Assembly: GCA_048938295.1 (NCBI GenBank)
Contig: JBHLMI010000007.1
Location: 30,001-62,000 of the forward strand
Source: Promethearchaeota archaeon
Lineage (GTDB): Archaea; Asgardarchaeota; Hermodarchaeia; Hermodarchaeales; Hermodarchaeaceae
Direction: 5' to 3'
DNA length: 32,000 nucleotides
Part shown: positions 4,553-30,356 of the stretch, piece by piece
Numbering within the stretch: position 1 is the stretch's first letter
Layout of the letters: every line of letters begins with the position of its first letter
Position numbers and translations under genes: made by a program
The notes under the pieces: generated by a model
Told to the model about the DNA's origin: nothing
Seen by the model: the letters and a program-made list of their open reading frames with translations, nothing else
Databases searched by the model: none

Positions 4553-5527
4553 ATGGTTTTCCTGTCCCGACAAAGACTCATTGTAGGGCTCTTAGTTATA
4601 CTTCTGCTTTTCATAGTTCCACAAGTAAAAGGCGCAGCCCAACAAGAAGAAGGGCAAATATCTATTGTCATCGATTTTAGCCACAACTCTACCTATAGTG
4701 TAGCAAAACGTAATTTCACTGAAGCTGTTGGGTTCTTTTCAAATCATCCAGAATATCAAGTTAGGACACTTGAGGATGGAGAATTAATTGCCGCAAACTT
4801 ATCTCGATCGCATATACTTGTGATTCCAAACCCAATGATCAATTATTCAGATTCCGAACTTGAGGTCATTTCTGATTATGTTGGAAGAGGAGGGTCCTTG
4901 TTTCTGCTTAGTGATTATCAAGTAACTGACCGACAAATAGGAAATCCACTTACTGTTAACCTGATTCTCCAAGCTTTGTTTGAATCGCGGATTCGGTTTA
5001 CTACCGTAACTGATAATGATGGAACAGAGGGAGATGCCATCATTGATTCAGTGGCAACAGAAATCCTTCCATATAATATTGAAGTCAATAGTTCCTATCT
5101 AATCCCCCGTCCAAACCGTGAGGCGATTGTTGCAGGCATCAACACGGTTATTGTTGCCGGTGGTTCGCTCACAACAACTTACTCAGACCTCATTGTGTCA
5201 ACAGGCTCAGAGACCTCCCAAGCTATCTCTTTAAATGGAGATGTGATTCAAAATCAACCTGGATGGCTCGCGGCGTTCTGGATAAGAAACTCTCGGGTTG
5301 TCTTATGCTCGTCAACCACGATGTTTTCTGATACAACTTGCTTGGCGACGAACCAAAGTTGGTTCCAATCTGAGGGCAACAGCGAACTTTGGCACAATAT
5401 CTTCAAATGGATAACTCTTGACTTGGTTCAAGACCCTACACAAATCATGATCTTCTTTGTAGCTCTGGTATTAATTGTGGGTCTTGTAGTGTTTGCTTAC
5501 TCACTTTGGCGAACCAAACGTGGATGA
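4553..5527 (+). CDS. Secreted, C-terminally anchored GIFT-domain protein (GldG/IFT52/OST48-Wbp1-like)
   Basis: Signal peptide, then IDFSHN, ISDYVGRGGSLF, STGSETS, RVVLCSSTTMFSD, GNSELWHNIFKWIT, and a C-terminal TM with a basic tail. Confidence 0.6.
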   Translation: MVFLSRQRLIVGLLVILLLFIVPQVKGAAQQEEGQISIVIDFSHNSTYSVAKRNFTEAVGFFSNHPEYQVRTLEDGELIAANLSRSHILVIPNPMINYSDSELEVISDYVGRGGSLFLLSDYQVTDRQIGNPLTVNLILQALFESRIRFTTVTDNDGTEGDAIIDSVATEILPYNIEVNSSYLIPRPNREAIVAGINTVIVAGGSLTTTYSDLIVSTGSETSQAISLNGDVIQNQPGWLAAFWIRNSRVVLCSSTTMFSDTTCLATNQSWFQSEGNSELWHNIFKWITLDLVQDPTQIMIFFVALVLIVGLVVFAYSLWRTKRG

Positions 5528-6186
5528 GGGCGGAAGTTTTTCGAAAGTGTCAGAATCCATCGAGTGATGTCTCTTTGGGCGCGAATTTTAGATTCTTCAT
5601 CACCATAGCTTGTGGCTATTGGAATCTCAGAAATCTTGAATCCAGCCCGTTGAGCGTCAATGAGTATTTCTGTTTCAGCAGCAAAGCCATCATCTCGGAC
5701 TTGTATAACCCCTAAAACCTGCCTCTTAAATGCACGATATCCTGATTGAGAATCCGTTACAGGAACCTTGAAGAAAACCCGTAGAACCTGGGTTGTGATA
5801 AGGTTGCTTAATTTCCTCAAAAAGGGCATTTCCCTAGATTGAGTTGAGGAACGGGAACCTACAACTACATCAAATCCTTCTTCGATTTTTTGAATGAATC
5901 GTGGAATTGATCTTGGATTATGCTGCATGTCGCCATCCAGGGTGATGATTATTTCACAGCCAACAGTTAATGCATAATTGAATCCTGTTCGTAATGCAGC
6001 TCCTTTTCCCATATTTTGAGGATGGCGAAGGACCTTTGCGCCCTGTTCTTCAGCGATCTGAGCCGTATTGTCTGTGCTACCATCATCGATCACAATTACA
6101 CAGGAGCAGTATTTTCGAGAAAGAGTCACTACTTCTTTGATGGCTCGAGATTCTTGGTACGCAGGGATAACACAGCAGACGGTCAT
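5497..6186 (-). CDS. GT2 glycosyltransferase, DPM1-like polyprenol-phosphate glycosyltransferase
   Basis: VIPAYQE, IDDGSTDNT, NMGKGAAL, LDGDMQH, DVVVGSR, TDSQSGYRAF and FAAETEIL motifs. Confidence 0.9.
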   Translation of the reverse strand: MTVCCVIPAYQESRAIKEVVTLSRKYCSCVIVIDDGSTDNTAQIAEEQGAKVLRHPQNMGKGAALRTGFNYALTVGCEIIITLDGDMQHNPRSIPRFIQKIEEGFDVVVGSRSSTQSREMPFLRKLSNLITTQVLRVFFKVPVTDSQSGYRAFKRQVLGVIQVRDDGFAAETEILIDAQRAGFKISEIPIATSYGDEESKIRAQRDITRWILTLSKNFRPHPRLVRQSE

Positions 6187-6589: not shown

Positions 6590-8341
6590 TTACCTTTGGG
6601 CTTTTCGTTCAAGGTCATTGATTAGCTGGGTTGCAACTTCGAGTGAATCAGTGTCGGATACTTCATTAACGGAGAGTTCTAACTCGTTAGAGAAATTGTT
6701 TAGGTTGATTCGCCCGTAAAGCTGAATCTCTTTACCGAGTAGGTCTTCCTCTACTTTATTTACTGGTTCGTCTTCGTTCCCTGATTCCGTAATTAGACGC
6801 TTCGCCTCGACGCTTGTTATTCCGAAGAGTTTCTCTGCTGAAAGTCCGATGAGGCTCGCGCGGATGTTATCGGTTCCATCATCGATGACGATTTTTGCGA
6901 TGAGTCGTGGTTCAGCTTTGGGGATTTTTCCACATTTTGGACATGTTACTGTTGAATTGCTCTTTGAGACTTTTTTGAAGCATTTAGGACAGGACTCGTA
7001 AACGGATTTCTGGTGAATAACCTGGACAATTGTTCCCCGAACCTTGACGAAGTTGCCTTCCGTTACTTCAACTAGCATTTTGGTTGGAGACGCTGTTTGT
7101 CCACTTCTGAGAATTGTTCCTGACGGACTCGCAATTTTGATATTAGGTGGATTTCGCAGAACTTGTGTTGCTTCATTGATATGCAGTTCAAGGCCACCTC
7201 GGAGGCCTGATCGGCAGCTGACACCCTCCAAGAGGAGTATTGTACCTTTTTGCACATCTGCTAGATTCTCAGCGGCTTTACCCCAAGCTACAGCGCGAAC
7301 CTGGCCCGAATCATCAGCAAAAGTGAATGCAAGGCGCTTACCTTCTTGACCATCACGTCTAGTGAAGGTGCTTAGACCTTCATTTTCAATTACAATAACA
7401 CCAACTGTATTGGCATAATCTCCGGGTTTCAAATCCTTTAGCATCTGAGGTGTGGATGGACCTTTTGGTGACTCACTGGGTGTCGAGGAAAGTTGTTGTA
7501 TACGCCCACGTCGACCCACATGAAGTTCTGGTACGTTGTTTCGGTCCAGACGTACGTATCCACTTTCGATACGAATCCTATCATTTACCGACAGCTTGTT
7601 GAACCATTCACTCTGTTCATCCCATAAGACAAGGCGAGTGCGTCCAGTATCATCGCGAATCGCCAAATTGGCCACAGTTCCCTCCGAATCTCCACGATTA
7701 AAAGATGTAATACGATATTTATCCGTCACTTCACCTTCAATGGAAACATCGCTCATTCCTTCCTGAAGCGAATTGATTTTAGTGAGGGTCATCACTGTTT
7801 CAGGAAAGTCCTTGGAATCAACATCAGGGGGACTGATCATTATACGGCTTCCCCCACCAAGGTGGATTTCTATTTGATCACGAAGCCCCATTCTTACTCG
7901 TCCATTGATAATGCGGATAATATCGCCTTCATCAAATTCCTTATCTTCTATGGGTTGGGTGTGCTTATTCCAGAAAGTAATGCGAATCGAACCCGTTGCA
8001 TCACTTCCAATTATACTGGCGACTTGCCCTTCTACTCCCTGTTTTCTCTGGAATGTTCGCACGGGATAAATTCGAGTGACTTTTACGTTCAGTGAAACGC
8101 CCGTCATCCCAGCTACAAGATCGCGTATGGTTAGTTTGAGTTCAGGTGTAGCTTGATTTTCGAATAAATCCAAATCTAATTCACGGGCTACTAATGATGC
8201 TGCACCTTCGTCGGTTACATATCCATCCAATTCCTGTTTTTTTGCTTCAACTAATTGGAGAACCTGTTCCTTTGATTTGCCGGATTTAGAAACAATCGTA
8301 TCGATAATTTCGGCAAGCTTAAGTGGCACGTTTAAAATCAA
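6590..8341 (-). CDS. rpa: Replication protein A, multiple OB folds plus Zn finger
   Basis: Repeated OB-fold signature (GSDATGSIRITFW, IRDDTGRTRLVLW, FADDSGQVRAVAW, IDDGTDNIRASL) and CPKC...CPKC. Start may be the GTG at 8330. Confidence 0.92.
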   Translation of the reverse strand: MILNVPLKLAEIIDTIVSKSGKSKEQVLQLVEAKKQELDGYVTDEGAASLVARELDLDLFENQATPELKLTIRDLVAGMTGVSLNVKVTRIYPVRTFQRKQGVEGQVASIIGSDATGSIRITFWNKHTQPIEDKEFDEGDIIRIINGRVRMGLRDQIEIHLGGGSRIMISPPDVDSKDFPETVMTLTKINSLQEGMSDVSIEGEVTDKYRITSFNRGDSEGTVANLAIRDDTGRTRLVLWDEQSEWFNKLSVNDRIRIESGYVRLDRNNVPELHVGRRGRIQQLSSTPSESPKGPSTPQMLKDLKPGDYANTVGVIVIENEGLSTFTRRDGQEGKRLAFTFADDSGQVRAVAWGKAAENLADVQKGTILLLEGVSCRSGLRGGLELHINEATQVLRNPPNIKIASPSGTILRSGQTASPTKMLVEVTEGNFVKVRGTIVQVIHQKSVYESCPKCFKKVSKSNSTVTCPKCGKIPKAEPRLIAKIVIDDGTDNIRASLIGLSAEKLFGITSVEAKRLITESGNEDEPVNKVEEDLLGKEIQLYGRINLNNFSNELELSVNEVSDTDSLEVATQLINDLERKAQR

Positions 8342-8434
8342 CCTCCCAAGGCTGATAACCTAATACCACAGGTTTCTACAGCCATTGTATTAAAAACATC
8401 ACCATGAAACCAAAAGGAATAGAGGCGTGCAAGT

Positions 8435-11251
8435 GTGGAGAAAACCGTCTTTGGGCTGTTGAATCCCAGACTTTCAGCGGAAATTAAAAAACAGGGATTC
8501 CAAACACCTACACCTATTCAGAACCGTAGCATTCCACGGATCCTTAGAGGCGAGTCTGTTCTCCTCATTGCCCCTACCGGACATGGAAAAACAGAAGCCG
8601 CCTTCTTTCCATTAATAAATCGACTCCTCGAAGAACCTACGGATGTAAAAAGTGTTCAAGTTATCTGGGTTACTCCGCTTCGGGCTCTTAATCGGGACAT
8701 CCTGCGTCGCCTTGTTCAAATTGCTCAGGAGCTTAAAGTTCGTGTCGAAGTTAGGCATGGTGATACACCAGCTTCAGCTCGCCGTCGGCAGACTCTCAAA
8801 CCGCCTCAAATGTTTATTATAACACCTGAAACCCTACAAGCGATTTTAGTTGGAAAACGGATTCGTGAGCACCTTCGTAATGTTAGTTGTGTGGTTATCG
8901 ATGAGATTCATGAGCTAGCAGCCAGTAAACGTGGAGTCCAATTAATGGTGGCGTTAGAAAGGCTCCGCGAATTAACAAAGACGCCGTTTCAAAGGGTTGG
9001 ATTATCTGCTACGGTTGGGAACCCACGTGAAATTCAGAGGTTCATGGGCGGAGAGGAGAGAGTGGGAATTGTAAAATCTCCCGCCTCAAAAAACTTCGAT
9101 TTTCATCTCGAATATTGTCCGTTGTCTTTTGGTGAGGAAGATAAGTCGCCTCTTGATGGTCCGGCTGAAAGGATATGGGAATTGGTGAATACCCATTCAT
9201 CAACTCTGATATTTTGTAATGAACGGCAAACTGCTGAGGCATTAGGGCTCAGATTATCGAGACTCCATGGTAGTGACTCTGGAGTCCACCACGGCTCCCT
9301 TTCTCGAGAAGCTCGAATAGAAGCAGAACAAAAATTCAAAGCTGGTGAGGCGCCCTATTTAGTATGTACCTCGTCCTTAGAACTGGGGCTAGACATCGGG
9401 TTAGTGGATTTGGTAATCCAGTATGGCTCACCACGTCAAGTAATTCGACTACTCCAACGCGTAGGTCGATCAGGACATCAACTTAATCGAGTATCAAAGG
9501 GAGTAATTATCACCACCAGATTTGATGATGTTTGCGAAGGAATAGCAATCACTGAGAAGGCTTTAGAAGGTGTCCTAGAAACACCGCCCATTCATTATAA
9601 CGCGTTGGATATCGTCGCTCATCAGCTAGTTGGACTTGCAATTGAATATAAGACACTCACCTATGCACAGGCGATGAACATCATCAAACGTGCACCCCCT
9701 TACCGCTCTCTTAAAAAGGAAAAAATCACAAAAGTGATTGAATATCTTCAAATTGAAGGTTTAATATCAAGAGACGATGTAATTCTTAGACCAAGGCGGA
9801 AATCCTATTCTTACTATTTTGAAAACCTCTCCGTGATTCCTGATACGCCTCACCATCGGGTTATCAACATGGCTACAAATAGGCCAGTTGGACGCCTTGA
9901 TACGGGTTTCGCTGAAGAATATGGGCATACGGGTAACATACTAGTTCTGCGTGGACGACCTTGGGAGGTCGTTAAACAGGATGAAGAAAGCGTATATGTT
10001 ACGGCCGTTCAGCACACAAAAGGGCGAATACCCAGATGGAGTGGAGAGCTGATTCCCGTATCGAAGATAGTTGTGGAGAGTGTGAGTGATTTATGGAATA
10101 ATGTCGCAGAAAATTTAGATCACCCTGATTCAATATCATATAATATCGACATCGATGAGCCAGCGAAACAAATTCAGTTAACAACCATTACCAAACAAAT
10201 TCAAAGCGGCTTCGTTCCCAATAGCCAAAGTATCACCATTGAAGTAGGACATGAATTGATTGTCATCCATTCCTGCTATGGTACTCGTATCAACCAAACC
10301 CTTGGTCGCTTGCTTGCAGCTCTTCTAACCTCGCAATTAGGAAGAGAAATTGTATTTCATGCAGATCAATACCGAATCCTTTTTCGATTCGAACGTGGTG
10401 GCGGCCATGCAATCGGCGAGGCCCTATATGAAGGGCTGCAGCAACTTGAAGCTGCCCATATGGATGAGTTGCTGCAACTCATCTTGCTGCGATCCCCGTA
10501 TTTTGCGCGACGTTTCCTTCATGTGGCGCGTAGATTCGGGGTGATTTCACATTCTGCGAGCCTTAGAAGCAGCCAACTTCTCCGGATAATGCAATATTTC
10601 ACAGGAACCCCAATTATCGAAGAAGCATTACGAGAGTTCTATGTGGATAAGCTGGATATCACTAACACACGGTCTCTTCTGGAAGCCATACAGGCCAAGG
10701 AAATCGAAGTACAAAAAATCCATCAGGCCCGCCCATCTCCTTTTGCTCGACAAATTCTAGCACGATTTGGCGAGTTTCTTGAACCCGAAATTCCTGAATC
10801 GTATATCCTTGAACAAACCAAGAAGCGCCTTTTAGATCGAAAAGTCCGACTGGTATGCTTGCATTGTGGACAATGGACAAGTGTGCGGACAATCAAGCAT
10901 TTGGATGATCACCCTCAATGTAAGAAATGTGCCTCAAGGCTTATTGCCGGGGTTTTTCCAACGGATGAATTATTACAAAAAGCAATTCGCCGTCACCGAG
11001 CGGGACAAAAATTATCCCCTGAGGAACAAAAAGCGCTTCGAAAAGGTCGCGAAAACGCTGAGGTTGTACTTAACTATGGAAAACCAGCACTAATTGCCAT
11101 GGCGGGTAGAGGAGTTGGACCAACTGTTGTTAAACGGATTCTCGCAGGAAGCCATGAACGACCTGAAAGCGAATTCTACCGTCTTATTTTAGAAAATGAG
11201 AAGCAGTTCATTCGAACCAGGGAATGGTGGGCTGAGGCAAAGCCTCAATAA
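8435..11251 (+). CDS. lhr: Lhr-family SF2 helicase with C-terminal Cys-rich motif
   Basis: APTGHGKT, DEIH, GLSATVGN, HHGSLS, TSSLELGLDIG, LLQRVGRSGH, and C-terminal CLHC...CKKC. Confidence 0.93.
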   Translation: MEKTVFGLLNPRLSAEIKKQGFQTPTPIQNRSIPRILRGESVLLIAPTGHGKTEAAFFPLINRLLEEPTDVKSVQVIWVTPLRALNRDILRRLVQIAQELKVRVEVRHGDTPASARRRQTLKPPQMFIITPETLQAILVGKRIREHLRNVSCVVIDEIHELAASKRGVQLMVALERLRELTKTPFQRVGLSATVGNPREIQRFMGGEERVGIVKSPASKNFDFHLEYCPLSFGEEDKSPLDGPAERIWELVNTHSSTLIFCNERQTAEALGLRLSRLHGSDSGVHHGSLSREARIEAEQKFKAGEAPYLVCTSSLELGLDIGLVDLVIQYGSPRQVIRLLQRVGRSGHQLNRVSKGVIITTRFDDVCEGIAITEKALEGVLETPPIHYNALDIVAHQLVGLAIEYKTLTYAQAMNIIKRAPPYRSLKKEKITKVIEYLQIEGLISRDDVILRPRRKSYSYYFENLSVIPDTPHHRVINMATNRPVGRLDTGFAEEYGHTGNILVLRGRPWEVVKQDEESVYVTAVQHTKGRIPRWSGELIPVSKIVVESVSDLWNNVAENLDHPDSISYNIDIDEPAKQIQLTTITKQIQSGFVPNSQSITIEVGHELIVIHSCYGTRINQTLGRLLAALLTSQLGREIVFHADQYRILFRFERGGGHAIGEALYEGLQQLEAAHMDELLQLILLRSPYFARRFLHVARRFGVISHSASLRSSQLLRIMQYFTGTPIIEEALREFYVDKLDITNTRSLLEAIQAKEIEVQKIHQARPSPFARQILARFGEFLEPEIPESYILEQTKKRLLDRKVRLVCLHCGQWTSVRTIKHLDDHPQCKKCASRLIAGVFPTDELLQKAIRRHRAGQKLSPEEQKALRKGRENAEVVLNYGKPALIAMAGRGVGPTVVKRILAGSHERPESEFYRLILENEKQFIRTREWWAEAKPQ

Positions 11252-11256
11252 TGAGA

Positions 11257-11364
11257 TTATTGTTCTTCACGTCCGCTTAGGATGTGGTAAGCAATGATAA
11301 GTAGACTTGCTAAAATTGAGAGTAAAATGGTCACGATGTAATAGATTTGATATACGACATCCAT
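11257..11364 (-). CDS. 35-aa single-TM micro-protein, OST4-like
   Basis: Below the ORF-track cutoff. MDVVYQIYYIVTILLSILASLLIIAYHILSGREEQ fills the lhr-SWIM gap and is co-directional with the SWIM gene. Confidence 0.65.
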   Translation of the reverse strand: MDVVYQIYYIVTILLSILASLLIIAYHILSGREEQ

Positions 11365-11410
11365 TTGCAGAACCGTCTTGCCAAGTTATTTCACTGCTTT
11401 TTAAGTTTAC

Positions 11411-11851
11411 TCAAGCATCCTCTTTCTTTGATTTTAGAGCTGCTGGCTTTTCTAGCAATCGTTCCCATTCTTCGCGTAATGTGTTATACCGCATATCATC
11501 GATACGGATTTCTGAATACTTACTTAGGGCTTTGGCAAGAATTTGGGCGAGAATATGATAACAAAGATCTGCCGTGCGTTTTACTATAACGTTGATATAG
11601 AAGTCTTCACAGTCACAATACACTTCAGACAAAACACGATAATCCCGGCTTTTACCCACAACAACCCAAGCTTCCCTACCGCTTGGTTCGAAGACGTATT
11701 TTTTAACCAGGTCATTAGCTACCGCTTGAAGAGCCTTCCAAAAGCGGTCACCACAGAGCCTGTTGAGATCAACAAGTGAAGCACCCGAGATGGCTTGTTG
11801 TTTTTTAATGGAGTCTAAGACTGCTACTAAATCGCCTTTCATCAATATCAA
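11411..11851 (-). CDS. SWIM zinc-finger protein, SWS1/ZSWIM7-like
   Basis: YCDCEDF...LCYHILA (CxC...CxH), preceded by PSGREAWVVVGKS. Confidence 0.85.
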   Translation of the reverse strand: MILMKGDLVAVLDSIKKQQAISGASLVDLNRLCGDRFWKALQAVANDLVKKYVFEPSGREAWVVVGKSRDYRVLSEVYCDCEDFYINVIVKRTADLCYHILAQILAKALSKYSEIRIDDMRYNTLREEWERLLEKPAALKSKKEDA

Positions 11852-11907
11852 CAGTCACTTATCATAAAGAAAAAAATACCTATCCGCTGAGTAATTAGTG
11901 AATCAGC

Positions 11908-12720
11908 ATGCAATTAGAACTCATCGAAAACGAACCAGCTGTTATCCTGTATGAGGAACCACGACGGGTTCTAGTTGTGGCTGACCTTCATATCGGATAT
12001 GAACGAACACTTTTCAAACAAGAGTTCTATTCAACGAATTTAACGCTTCAAATCATTCAACAAATTAGGCAACTCGTCAAAAAACAAAGGCCCACTGAAA
12101 TTATTATTTTGGGAGATTTGAAACATTCTATCCAAGACTTCTCAAAACAGGAATTTCAGCAGGTTGCACAACTACTTTTCGATTTACAACAACAGGCAGC
12201 TGTCACTATTGTCCGAGGTAATCATGACGCGGATTTAGAATTGGTTACCCCGGATGACACCCAGATTGTTTCAGCAGCGGGTTTCTCTCTTCGTTTCAAA
12301 TCAAACCAGGTATACTTCTTGCATGGTCATGCGTATCCTTCTGCTGACATATTATCCTGCGACAGTCTGTTGATGGGACATATTCACCCAGCAGTCTCAA
12401 TATCAAAGCTCAAAGAACGGGTTTCAATCCACCGTGTGTGGATGAGAACCAAATGGAATTCGACAATCATTGAAGCACTCAAAAGCTGCTTAGGTGAAAT
12501 ACACTTTCAAAAAGAACCAAGGATCGTGCAACGCTTACTTAGAATGAATGTATTGGTCATCCCAGCTTACAATAGTCTACTCCAAGGACATATTCTAAAC
12601 AAGGAACCATTGAATATGTTTCTTGGCTCTCCATTATTTCGGCATCTATCCTTAGAAGATGCAGAGATTGTGATGCTGGACCATACACCCTTAGGGACGT
12701 TGAAACAACTGACTGAGTAA
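11908..12720 (+). CDS. Calcineurin-like metallophosphoesterase (Lhr-associated MPE type)
   Basis: ADLHIG, ILGDLKH, RGNHD, HGH and MGHIHP metal-binding motifs. Confidence 0.9.
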   Translation: MQLELIENEPAVILYEEPRRVLVVADLHIGYERTLFKQEFYSTNLTLQIIQQIRQLVKKQRPTEIIILGDLKHSIQDFSKQEFQQVAQLLFDLQQQAAVTIVRGNHDADLELVTPDDTQIVSAAGFSLRFKSNQVYFLHGHAYPSADILSCDSLLMGHIHPAVSISKLKERVSIHRVWMRTKWNSTIIEALKSCLGEIHFQKEPRIVQRLLRMNVLVIPAYNSLLQGHILNKEPLNMFLGSPLFRHLSLEDAEIVMLDHTPLGTLKQLTE

Positions 12721-14200: not shown

Positions 14201-17200
14201 ATGACTACCCGAATAGGTACTATACAACGAATTGCGGGTCCTCTTATCGAAGCAGATGGCCTTCTTGGGGTCACTATGTTTGAAGTCTGCCGAGTGGGAG
14301 AAGAAGAGCTCATTGGCGAAGTGAACCGGATTGTCGGTGATCGAGCCTATATCCAAGTTTATGAAGAAACATCTGGATTGAAGCCTGGTGAAAAAGCCGT
14401 TGCCACAGGGACATCACTTGACGTGGAACTGGGCCCAGGTCTAGTTGGATCGATCTATGATGGGATTCAACGTCCGCTCCCCAGCATCAAAGAAGAAGTA
14501 GGAGACTTCATTACTCGTGGCGTAACCGCCGACCCTTTACCAGTTGACAAGAAATGGCCCTTTCAACCAGCAGTAGAGAAAGGTGCTTCTATCTGGCAAG
14601 GAGATGTATTGGGAACCGTTCAGGAAACAAGTGTATTTCTTCACAAAATTTTGGTTCCACCTGGAATCGAAGGAAAAATTACACATATCGCTCCTGCAGG
14701 GGATTACACAATTCGCGAAGTCATTGCTCAAGTCCAAACCGCTAAAGGCAAAGAAGACCTGAAACTCACCCAGCGTTGGCCAGTTCGAATTGGTCGACCT
14801 TACAAAACTAAAATCGGTACGGAGGTGCCCCTCTATACGGGACAGCGTGTGATTGACACCTTCTTTCCCGTTGCCAAAGGAGGAACCGGAGCAATTCCTG
14901 GAGGATTCGGAACTGGAAAATGTGTGACTAGTGATACTCCTGTTTTACTCGCAAATGGAGACACCATGCCAATTCAAACCTTATACACGAAATTCTTACA
15001 AAAAGGAGAATTTATTGAGCATGATTCGGAAGATGAGACACTTATTCGTCTGAAAACTCCTCTTCGAATCCTTTCATTCGATGGATTAAGATACGTTTCA
15101 GCTAAAGCAACTCACATCTATAGAGGAACAACTCCTGCAGTTGTAAAGATAACTACTCGTTCTGGACGAGCTGTGGAGGTTACACCAGTTCATAAGCTCT
15201 TCAGATTTAATGGCGAGAAAATCGAGGAAGTTGAAGCCCAGCGATTAAATCCAGGTGATCACCTCGTTGTACCAAAGAAACTGGATATACCAGGGCAGAT
15301 CACCCAATTTGATTGTTATGAGATAGATCTCTCTTTACGCGTAATCGATTCAAAAGCCATTCAAACCATGCAAGAGTTGATTCAGAGCCTTAATGAAAAA
15401 ATGACACTTAAAGAGCTCTCAAAGAAACTAGAGGTTTCCTACGATGTTCTCATTGGATATAAGATTGGGAAAAATAACCCAACGCTCAGATTCCTCGATA
15501 AGCTAGTTAAACTTGCAGGTAAGCCACGAATTCCCGTTACTCTCGTTAAAGCAGAAAGAGGGTCAGAACCATTTCGCATTCCCAACAAGCTTACTAAGGA
15601 AATGGCGGAATGGCTTGGATTATTTGTAGCTGATGGACATTTTAAAGGAAAATATCAAGGCATTTACCTATACAATTCTTCTCCACAAATTTTGAATCGT
15701 TTCAAAGAATTATCATTGATCGTATTTGATTTAGAACCACAAATCGATCAGGATTCGTCTGATAGAACGCCATTTGCCTTTATTCGAAATACAAGCCTCA
15801 AGAAATTCCTAATCTCCCTTGATCTACCTGAATATGATAAAGTGCACAATGTCCGAGTACCCTCATGTATCCGAATTGCGCCAGAAGATTATTTCGTCCA
15901 TTTTCTAACAGGATATATTGCTGGCGATGGACATTTCTCGAAGTTTTCCCTTCATCTAAGTACAGCAAGTCAGCAACTTCACAGCGACTTAGGATACCTT
16001 CTAACCCGACTTGGACTAATTTACCGGGCTAGACCGAAAAATGACTCCTATGTAATTGAAATAGATGGGAAATTTGCTGAACATATTTCAAAAAGCATGC
16101 AAACACAAGGAGTATTCCCCTATGACAAAATTCAGCGATTACATGAGTATGCATCACAAGAGATTACACACTTCGTTGGCTTGGATGTCGTTCCGGTTAG
16201 CCAGCAGCTTTTACTTTCTCTCAAATCAGAAGGAAAGACGCCCCAAGGTCACGATGTTTTCAGAACAGCGAATGGTTTACGCTTAGATAATTACACAAGA
16301 TTAGGCGAAACACCATCAATTGATACTATAAGACGCATCTTTGAGATAATAGATTCGCAAGAAACTCAAATCTCTAATGAAACTAGGGAAAAACTGCACG
16401 GAATTCTGAACATCGTCGAACAGGTTTACCTTGACCGAATTAAGAAAATTGAAATTACTGAAACAAACGTTCCAGTTTACGATATCACTGTGGAGAACAC
16501 TCACAATTTCGTTGGTGGAGTTCTACCAATAACACTTCATAATACTGTAACGTTGCACCAGCTGGCGAAGTGGGCTGATGCTGAAATCATCGTCTATGTT
16601 GGCTGCGGTGAAAGAGGTAACGAAATGACCGAAGTCCTCGAAGACTTCCCCAAACTCAAGGATCCCAAGAGCGGCAAATCATTAATGGAAAGAACATTGC
16701 TTGTTGCTAATACTAGTAATATGCCTGTTGCCGCACGCGAAGCCTCCATTTACACTGGAATAACGCTTGCCGAATATTTCCGTGACCAGGGCTATAACGT
16801 AGCTCTTATGGCAGACAGCACCTCACGATGGGCAGAAGCACTCCGAGAGATTTCAGGACGATTGGAGGAAATGCCAGGTGAAGAAGGATACCCTGCATAC
16901 CTGGGAAGTCGTCTCGCCGACTTCTATGAAAGAGCAGGACGAGTTAAAACCTTAGGAACTGATGACCGGGTGGGGAGCGTTACCGTTACAGGTGCGGTTT
17001 CTCCAGCTGGTGGTGACTTTTCAGAACCCGTTACACAATCGACTTTACGGATTACGAAAGTATTTTGGGCACTTGACAAAGACATGGCTTCAAGACGATT
17101 CTTCCCTGCAATCAATTATCTTCAAAGCTATTCTTTATACAAGGATGAGTTAGTTCCTTGGTACCAACGGAACATGGGTTCTGATTGGCCGGAACTTACT

Positions 17201-17599
17201 GAAGAGTCCCTATCCATCCTTCAACGTGATAAAGAACTTCGCGAAATCGTACAACTTGTCGGTCCTGATGCCTTGCCAGAGCGAGAACGTGCGATTTTAG
17301 AGGCTGCCCGAATGGTCAAGGAAGACTACTTAATGCAATCAGCTTTGCATCCAGTCGATACGTATTGCCCCGAGTTAAAGAGCTACTGGATGTTGAAGAT
17401 CATCATGGAGTTTTGGCAACATATGCGGCAAGCAATCGACGAAGGAATCCCACTTCGCCGAATCATTGCACTTCCTGTAGTAGGGAAAATCGCTCGGATG
17501 AAAGTGCAACCTCACGAAGACGTAAAGGTCATGGAACAATACTTCAAGGATCTTGAAAACGAAATCAACAACGAATTTATCTCCATTGAAGCAAATTAG
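14201..17599 (+). CDS. atpA: A/V-type ATP synthase subunit A, intein-containing
   Basis: [23 protein letters not shown]-loop GGFGTGK|[42 protein letters not shown]. About 591 aa after splicing. Confidence 0.97.
14921..16543 (+). mobile_element. 541-aa intein with LAGLIDADG endonuclease in the AtpA P-loop
   Basis: Starts CVTSDTPV (aa 241), block [14 protein letters not shown], motifs [10 protein letters not shown] and [10 protein letters not shown], ends [12 protein letters not shown]...LHN (aa 781), with Thr at +1. Confidence 0.96.
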
Positions 17600-29780: not shown

Positions 29781-30356
29781 TTACCATGGTTCCTGTTTCA
29801 GCCCAATGAGATAGCCGATGATATTTGCCGCCAGATGTATAATCGGGGTTAGAATCACCATGAAGATGGCAAGAACCCAATGAATTGGCGTTATGAGAGC
29901 ACCCAAAAGCATTGCCCCTATAAGAAAATCAAGCTGATCAAGTAGGGGGGCAGGTCGCCCTCGAGCAATCATAAATCGCCGTTTAATAAATGAGCCTACG
30001 AGATCACCTACAAGAGCACCGAGTGCCACCAGGATTACAAGTGGCAGAGTAATCAATACGATAGGAACAAGTTCTGGAGGAAGATATACGTACTGTACAA
30101 TAATGGAGAGAAGAATTGGAGCGGTCACGATTTGGAGTAGGCCAATTAGCACACCTGCTACAAATCCAACAATAAAACCTTCCCATGTCTTTCCGGGACC
30201 GAAGACTGGTTGACCGTCTTCAAGAATCCTACCTCCATCAATCGTGTGACGTGGTCTGATGAATTTACCAAATACTGCGAAGCCATTTGCCACATAAGTG
30301 GGAAGAAAATACCAAAAGCCGAGAAGAAGTAGAATTGGGTGAAACATCGCAGTCAC
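29781..30356 (-). CDS. carS: CDP-archaeol synthase
   Basis: LPTYVAN, IDGG, FGPGKTWEGF, GDLVGSFIKRR, PLLDQLDF, LKQEPW. Confidence 0.94.
   Translation of the reverse strand: MTAMFHPILLLLGFWYFLPTYVANGFAVFGKFIRPRHTIDGGRILEDGQPVFGPGKTWEGFIVGFVAGVLIGLLQIVTAPILLSIIVQYVYLPPELVPIVLITLPLVILVALGALVGDLVGSFIKRRFMIARGRPAPLLDQLDFLIGAMLLGALITPIHWVLAIFMVILTPIIHLAANIIGYLIGLKQEPW

Follow-up and report, generated by a model that had tools for sequence, protein, structure and literature searches.

A frame of 35 codons on the reverse strand of the genome of a Hermodarchaeia (Asgard) archaeon, within the 32,000-nucleotide stretch that was analysed (the window), is a real, conserved gene under purifying selection. 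It encodes a one-helix micro-protein, which, with a rough probability of 0.5, is a small Ost4-like accessory subunit of the eukaryote-like STT3/AglB. The eukaryote-like OST parts encoded in the same genome, the co-fold with STT3, the predicted topology and the Y-H pair at the helix boundary all favour an Ost4-like STT3 subunit.

One question of eukaryogenesis that is still open is the path from the single-subunit oligosaccharyltransferase of archaea to the eight-subunit OST of eukaryotes. Ost4 gives STT3 stability in the OST of yeast and human, assists in the recruitment of Ost3/Ost6, and holds STT3 and Ost3/6 together. Ost4 is too short for ordinary homology searches, and for this reason the reported Asgard Ost4 rests on thin published detail. 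A defined gene family with coordinates, an alignment, signs of purifying selection, a reproducible predicted seat on STT3 and a range that includes TACK archaea makes the question of an Asgard/TACK Ost4 testable.

The micro-gene and the evidence that it is coding

The micro-gene takes up the greater part of a 159-bp gap, which is bounded on one side by the 3′ end of the convergent Lhr-type helicase gene and on the other by the gene of a 146-aa SWIM zinc-finger protein (Table 1). The source assembly has 2.5 Mb and a completeness of 91.6%. The initial annotation had described the frame exactly: its translation shows D2, Q6-I7, the stretch LLIIAYH at residues 21-27, a single hydrophobic helix and the tail ILSGREEQ. 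A tblastn search found an intact frame of 34-35 aa, at 55-94% identity, in 18 of 18 further genomes from this GTDB family, which span two genera. The micro-gene is therefore intact in all 19 Hermodarchaeia genomes searched, with start and stop positions that are identical throughout and a start codon that is ATG except in three genomes, where it is GTG. This frame is the only one that is open in all of the Hermodarchaeia genomes.

The pattern of substitution is that of a protein-coding gene, with a median pairwise dN/dS of 0.15 among Hermodarchaeia. Third codon positions have a column entropy of 1.28 bits vs. 0.32 bits for second positions, and 33 of 34 third positions are variable vs. 14 of 34 second positions. 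In the alignment of the Hermodarchaeia micro-proteins (alignment A1, n = 17), M1, Q6, L22, I23, H27 and G31 are invariant, position 26 is either Y or F, and the G-R-E-E of the tail is nearly invariant; residue 2 varies among S, D, N and Q. The conservation and dN/dS analysis supports a genuine micro-protein gene that is conserved in these Asgard genomes, its product having the single helix, the OST4-like length and the aromatic-His pair at the helix end that had been read from the sequence of one genome. That the frame is a chance opening in an intergenic spacer, as its very short length and the lack of a database family might suggest, is exceedingly improbable and is refuted in practice by the 19/19 intact frames with fixed start and stop, by the low dN/dS with variation concentrated at third positions, and by orthologues that span two phyla. 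No Rfam family or tRNA was found to overlap the ORF, and a sub-threshold Glutamine-II Rfam match inside the Lhr gene was dismissed.

Two elements in the short region upstream of the ATG are listed in Table 1. We infer that the TATA-like box may be the micro-gene's own archaeal promoter; a AAGTTAAAAAG-type motif is found at the same distance from the micro-gene in both Hermodarchaeia genera. The leader motif is non-coding, because an in-frame stop codon precedes it, and it possibly marks the transcription start or the site of ribosome binding. The GGCAGAACGGTTCT-type leader of the micro-gene is kept at the nucleotide level, with GCAGGGCAGGTCACC in genus g2 taking the place of the leader motif of genus g1. 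The orthologues in Bathyarchaeia/Thermoproteota are preceded by TTAAATAT-type boxes or by a GGAGGT Shine–Dalgarno sequence.

Table 1 Coordinates of the micro-gene, its upstream elements and the other genes discussed, in window positions
Feature	Position	Strand	Remarks
Wbp1/OST48-like GIFT-domain membrane protein	4553..5527	+	IFT52_GIFT 25.5 bits, OST48_N 16.9 bits, both below cut-off
GT2 (DPM1-like) glycosyltransferase	5497-6186	-	3′ end overlapped by the Wbp1-like gene
RPA-like OB-fold protein	6590-8341	-	
Lhr-type helicase	8435..11251	+	Convergent neighbour; DEAD, Helicase_C, DEAD_assoc, WH_Lhr
Micro-protein CDS	11257..11364	-	ATG, 35 codons + TAA; one TM helix, [YF]-H at 26-27, tail S-G-R-E-E-Q
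Leader motif GGCA(A/G)(A/G)ACGGTTCT	11369..11382	-	Just upstream of the ATG; conserved at the nucleotide level in genus g1
TATA-like box TTAAAAA	11398..11404	-	33 nt before the ATG, 6 nt past the stop of the upstream gene
ZSWIM7/SWS1/Shu2-like SWIM zinc-finger protein, 146 aa	11411..11851	-	Weak SWIM match; AF2 model; same-strand upstream neighbour
Divergent calcineurin-like metallophosphoesterase	11908-12720	+	
Ost3/Ost6-like four-TM protein, 141 aa	29308..29733	+	PF04756 25 bits vs. cut-off 27, E 1.5e-5, profile positions 169-278
CDP-archaeol synthase (CarS)	29781-30356	-	Adjoins the Ost3/6-like gene

Distribution of the family in Asgard and TACK archaea

When 301 genomes of the phylum were searched with a profile, orthologues of 33-43 aa came to light in four further Asgard GTDB families, referred to here as f27, f26, f6 and f5. 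The f27 orthologues, present in eight genomes, are 34 aa long, start with M-I-D and carry the sequence G-Y-H-L-V-S-G-E-E-E-E, in which Y-H occupies positions 25-26. The f26 orthologues likewise begin with M-I-D, and neither family has the Q of the Hermodarchaeia. In f26, f6 and f5, Y-M replaces Y-H, and the tails are acidic. The whole family can be aligned from the C-terminus without gaps, the Hermodarchaeia carrying one extra N-terminal residue. The Y-H pair, one of the features on which the proposed likeness to OST4 had been based, is conserved in part: [YF]-H is found in all 17 Hermodarchaeia sequences and Y-H in f27, whereas the histidine has become methionine in f26, f6 and f5.

The family extends to a second phylum. 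Thermoproteota and Bathyarchaeia possess a one-helix ORF of 36-37 aa that ends in F-L-H-M-I-Y-G-K-E-E-E-E or a similar sequence and follows an SWS1-like gene, by means of which these loci were first fetched. A profile search at E ≤ 0.002 then identified family ORFs in 17 of 81 sampled genomes of the Bathyarchaeia/Thermoproteota class, and these TACK members show Y/H-M or V-Y at the helix boundary. What unites the family is a single helix with an aromatic-His/Met boundary, followed by an acidic tail. As defined, it comprises proteins of 33-43 aa with one TM segment, an aromatic-[HM] boundary and a tail G-[RKE]-E-E, encoded directly downstream of a ZSWIM7/SWS1-like gene, and the micro-protein of the window fits this definition.

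In protein databases the family is sparse. A search with the family HMM against 1.84 billion representative proteins returned only three clusters, all of near-identical Hermodarchaeia-type sequences, with no eukaryotic OST4 among the matches. The exact peptide was not found in a collection of 15 billion proteins, no NCBIfam match to it was obtained, and a feature search of the ESM Atlas gave no usable match. The gene had been thought invisible to normal gene callers; however, gene callers did pick up several close orthologues, which are entered without a name or as hypothetical in records of NCBI, JGI and ENA. In a further Asgard family, f4 (loci L096 and L097, G021:C19), two one-helix ORFs of 44-49 aa lie about 10 kb apart and end in V-I-Y-[HN]-I-L-A-[GE]-R-[RK]-E, followed by a basic extension; these two ORFs may be divergent paralogues of the micro-protein family.

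Sequence comparison with OST4

The Pfam Ost4 profile (PF10215; cut-off 25 bits) does not match the micro-protein at E ≤ 10, and a six-frame search of its own genome with the same profile gave nothing over the cut-off, the only matches (8.6 bits) lying elsewhere in the genome. The six-frame hmmsearch across Asgard genomes by which the initial annotation proposed to verify an OST4 homolog was equally negative, with no match over the cut-off in any of 151 genomes. The sub-threshold matches in these genomes were mostly start-less frames or parts of large proteins and were set aside. Among the family members themselves, Pfam Ost4 touches only 2 of 20, at about 12 bits and E ~0.2, and family profiles found no OST4 among PDB chains at E ≤ 10. 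Yeast and human OST4, whose sequences were verified against the PDB, find each other in the PDB only at E 0.07-0.08, which indicates that the OST4 family is intrinsically hard to detect.

As decoys for the reverse comparison, 3022 natural TM segments of this genome were used, forward and reversed. The Hermodarchaeia HMM scores yeast OST4 at 5.4 bits and human OST4 at 6.2 bits, which correspond to the top 2.9% and 1.8% of the decoys, respectively, and the HMM of the wider family places both proteins at the decoy median. A profile match that stands out from random TM peptides, as would be expected of a homolog, is seen marginally at most: the match is at best within the top 2-3%, and it is lost in the wider profile. 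A profile–profile alignment by hhalign of the family with yeast plus human OST4 pairs residues 14-30 with residues 13-29, anchored on Y-H, at a pairwise P of 0.0023 and a probability of 12.5%; with the combined TACK and Asgard alignment, the values are P 0.0065 and 5.8%.

The register of this alignment also bears on the residues that had first suggested OST4. When anchored on YH, Q6 of the Hermodarchaeia falls on V5 of human OST4 and D2 falls on M1, and the N-terminal M-I-(T/S)-D-x-Q-L motif of OST4 is not kept in the family in register with YH. The Q6 and D matches put forward in the initial annotation are therefore out of register by one or more residues, and D2 is moreover unconserved. Taken together, the sequence evidence is marginal to negative and does not establish OST4 homology of the micro-protein.

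A relationship with RND pumps, raised by a match to TM10 of AcrB/MexB in the PDB search (about 17 bits, E 0.03), was rejected as a hydrophobic coincidence. The part resembling RND TM10 is the N-terminal half of the Hermodarchaeia peptide, which also matches proteins of about 1100 aa in Asgard family f9.

STT3 and the predicted complex

The only STT3/AglB of the genome (G000:C51:10866-15119) matches human STT3A at E 7e-89 vs. 1e-7 for the AglB of Archaeoglobus fulgidus. An upstream in-frame ATG, which adds 22 basic residues, is probably the true start of this STT3, because many homologues cover that stretch. A conserved run of arginines (R452-R456) is found in its cytoplasmic loop before TM13.

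Residues 1-620 of STT3 (alignment A2, 61 rows) were co-folded with the peptide family (alignment A1). The ipSAE values of the co-fold were 0.74, 0.78 and 0.74, compared with 0.00 for the best of three controls, which may not be TM helices. The partner had a pLDDT of 79 or higher, and 96% or more of the contacts were shared between runs. Of 80 solved complexes, 58 attained the same mark, as did 2 of 110 mismatched pairs; these counts are only rough, own alignments having been used.

The predicted interface on STT3 comprises residues 5-31, 131-144, 434-445, 470-485 and 501-508, which, by alignment to human STT3A, represent TM1, the cytoplasmic start of TM3, TM12 and TM13. The contact pairs run antiparallel to TM1, with STT3 residues 9-13 opposite peptide residues 22-26 and STT3 residues 20-24 opposite peptide residues 11-16, which would place the N-terminus of the peptide outside and the Y-H boundary and the tail inside, as for Ost4. 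In cryo-EM structures, Ost4 is nestled between TMH1 and TMH13 of Stt3, and charged substitutions at Ost4 residues 18-24 destabilise the Stt3-Ost4-Ost3 subcomplex (reviewed in PMC7226087). The strongest predicted contacts fall on peptide residues 19-26, the counterpart of yeast Ost4 18-24 when the two are anchored on YH. Positions in contact were compared with the other TM positions for conservation, and the difference is insignificant (p ~0.17).

The co-fold with the genome's own STT3, which had been suggested for comparison with the OST4 site, thus arrives at the TM1/TM13 groove with the topology of OST4 and an ipSAE of 0.74 vs. 0.00. Of the original proposal of a prokaryotic OST4 homolog, the OST4-like seat and topology find support in this model, whereas homology by sequence does not. 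Because STT3–OST4 complexes have already been solved, the pass may reflect memory of the model, and the co-fold shows likeness to the OST4 complex rather than binding.

In the role proposed here, the helix of the micro-protein would pack in the TM1/TM13 groove of STT3 and touch TM3 and TM12, and the model predicts its N-terminus outside the cell and its aromatic-His boundary and acidic tail in the cytoplasm. By analogy with Ost4, the micro-protein would stabilise STT3 and recruit the Ost3/Ost6-like protein, and it would share common descent with eukaryotic OST4. The Ost3/6-like protein encoded 18 kb from the micro-gene is a candidate for the third member of an STT3-Ost4-Ost3 subcomplex. A further-reaching version, in which the family is the prokaryotic ancestor of OST4 and older than Asgard, so that its helix would have been lodged in the TM1/TM13 groove of STT3/AglB already in the ancestor that TACK and Asgard archaea share, is put forward as a tentative and rather doubtful extension. 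If it were true, Ost4 would rank with the oldest accessory subunits of OST, and its gene would have formed a fixed pair with an SWS1-like one.

The conserved helix of the micro-protein argues for a membrane partner, which could also be one other than STT3. The micro-protein might be a subunit or regulator of another membrane machine, such as a translocon, an insertase, a transporter or a lipid enzyme, or a stand-alone membrane peptide, in which case the STT3 co-fold and the SWS1 adjacency would both be uninformative. Single-TM micro-proteins often bind diverse membrane complexes, sequence profiles place this one in no known family, the chance match to RND TM10 shows how easily such helices match, and CDP-archaeol synthase and phosphomannomutase are among the neighbours of the gene in other lineages. 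However, no particular alternative partner has positive evidence, and the co-fold with STT3 is reproducible and specific vs. the three controls; we regard another membrane role of this kind as somewhat unlikely.

The SWS1-like neighbour

ZSWIM7/SWS1/Shu2 is the SWIM subunit of the Shu recombination-mediator complex. The 146-aa protein encoded upstream of the micro-gene has an AlphaFold2 model with a pLDDT of 89, which matches ZSWIM7 of Dictyostelium, zebrafish, human and mouse over the whole length (TM 0.72-0.78, 27-30% identity, E 3e-11 to 2e-8), and the best PDB matches of the model are Shu2 chains of the yeast Shu complex. Its relatives bear in JGI only the name "predicted nucleic acid-binding Zn finger protein".

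The pairing of the two genes is widespread. In all Hermodarchaeia the SWS1-like gene lies 20-60 nt upstream of the micro-gene on the same strand, and it does so too in Asgard families f26 and f5 as well as at 18 of the 19 Bathyarchaeia/Thermoproteota loci. With an SWS1-like gene ahead of it across TACK and Asgard, the micro-gene has a context that gives no pointer to glycosylation. In family f27, the micro-gene instead directly precedes Lhr, and the SWS1-like gene, on a different contig, has no micro-TM ORF beside it; in family f6, the two genes are 2 kb apart on opposite strands. Both genes thus persist in f27 and f6 although the pair is broken.

This pairing suggests a reading in which the SWS1-like protein has the micro-protein as its membrane partner or anchor, and in which the likeness of the micro-protein to OST4 is convergent. 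The conserved acidic cytoplasmic tail would then tether the recombination mediator to the membrane, together with the RadA-paralogue partners of the mediator. An adjacency kept across phyla, here from all Hermodarchaeia through f26 and f5 to nearly all of the Bathyarchaeia/Thermoproteota loci, usually signals a functional link, and the neighbour is a full-length ZSWIM7 look-alike. However, the SWIM protein has no TM segment, and yet the helix of the micro-protein is conserved, which suggests packing against a membrane protein. In addition, both phyla have TATA-like boxes in the spacer of the pair, so that the genes may be transcribed separately; the pair is split in f27 and f6; the surrounding operons mix unrelated housekeeping genes (PGM/PMM, EngB GTPase, Elf1); and we know of no member of the SWS1/Shu2 family with a membrane partner. 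On these grounds an SWS1 partner or anchor is considered unlikely. It and the Ost4-like subunit are not mutually exclusive, and the stable pairing with SWS1 represents either a second function or a caution against inferring the function of the micro-gene from gene order.

Other genes of the window and of related loci

The stretch from 6590 to 12720 is a neighbourhood of the DNA-repair type, with the RPA-like, Lhr, SWS1-like and metallophosphoesterase genes, and other Asgard families carry parts of this set close to the micro-gene. Glycosylation-related genes are also found inside the window, none of them next to the micro-gene. The Wbp1-like gene is 5.7 kb from the micro-gene in this genome; in families f26 and f6, a Wbp1-like homologue lies about 0.9 kb from it, with a 75-aa gene and the gene of an EngB-type GTPase in between and no GT2/DPM1-like gene found there. 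In family f26, the CarS gene, which in the window adjoins the Ost3/6-like gene, is instead beside Elf1 and the Wbp1-like gene.

At one locus of family f26 (L136, 1204-4010), the gene of a phosphogluco/phosphomannomutase and the SWS1-like gene share 4 nt at the start of the latter; then come the micro-gene, an MJ1579-like 75-aa gene and the gene of an EngB-type GTPase, all on one strand. This run looks like one operon of functionally mixed genes. Elsewhere in the window, the gene for the catalytic subunit of an A-type ATPase (14201-17599, + strand) is split by an intein that bears a LAGLIDADG domain, as recognised by Pfam Intein_splicing and LAGLIDADG_3 matches inside ATP-synt_ab.

Comparison with known systems

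OST4 was at first taken, pending a check, to be absent from the OST subunits reported from Asgard archaea; however, Eme et al. 2023 (Nature 618:992; PMC10307638) had published Asgard homologues of Ost2, Ost4, Ost5, Swp1 and Wbp1, with Ost4 and Ost5 present in most Asgard classes. These Ost4 homologues belong to the same phylum and have the same claimed role as the micro-protein family. In the available portions of the text and supplements of that paper (PMC10307638), Ost5 and Wbp1 are discussed, and no accession, sequence or cluster for Ost4 was found. A 2024 study of the MK-D1 translocon included only OST1, OST3/6 and STT3. Relative to the literature searched, four things are new: the definition of the family together with its signature of selection, the seat predicted at TM1/TM13, the reach of the family into TACK archaea, and the fixed pairing with an SWS1-like gene.

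The predicted arrangement is reminiscent of the bacterial micro-subunits AcrZ and KdpF, single helices of about 30-50 residues that fit into a groove on a large membrane protein. They have no sequence relation to the micro-protein and belong to different machines in a different domain of life.

The closer comparison is with eukaryotic OST4, for which yeast Ost4p and human OST4 (PF10215; PDB 1RKL, 2LAT, 6EZN and 6S7O) served as references. Unlike eukaryotic OST4, the micro-protein has no significant profile match, and the histidine is methionine in several Asgard and TACK members of its family. The most conserved feature of the family is its acidic tail (G-R/K/E-E-E), whereas the tail of OST4 is neutral or basic. 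Like eukaryotic OST4, the micro-protein falls into the size class of 34-37 residues and has one TM helix, predicted to run from an N-terminus outside to a cytosolic C-terminus. An aromatic-His pair stands at the cytosolic end of the helix in both, and the YH of the f27 orthologues has the very same positions, 25-26, as that of yeast and human OST4. The predicted seat of the micro-protein is likewise between TM1 and TM13 of an STT3 that is STT3A-like, in a genome that also encodes an Ost3/6-like protein.
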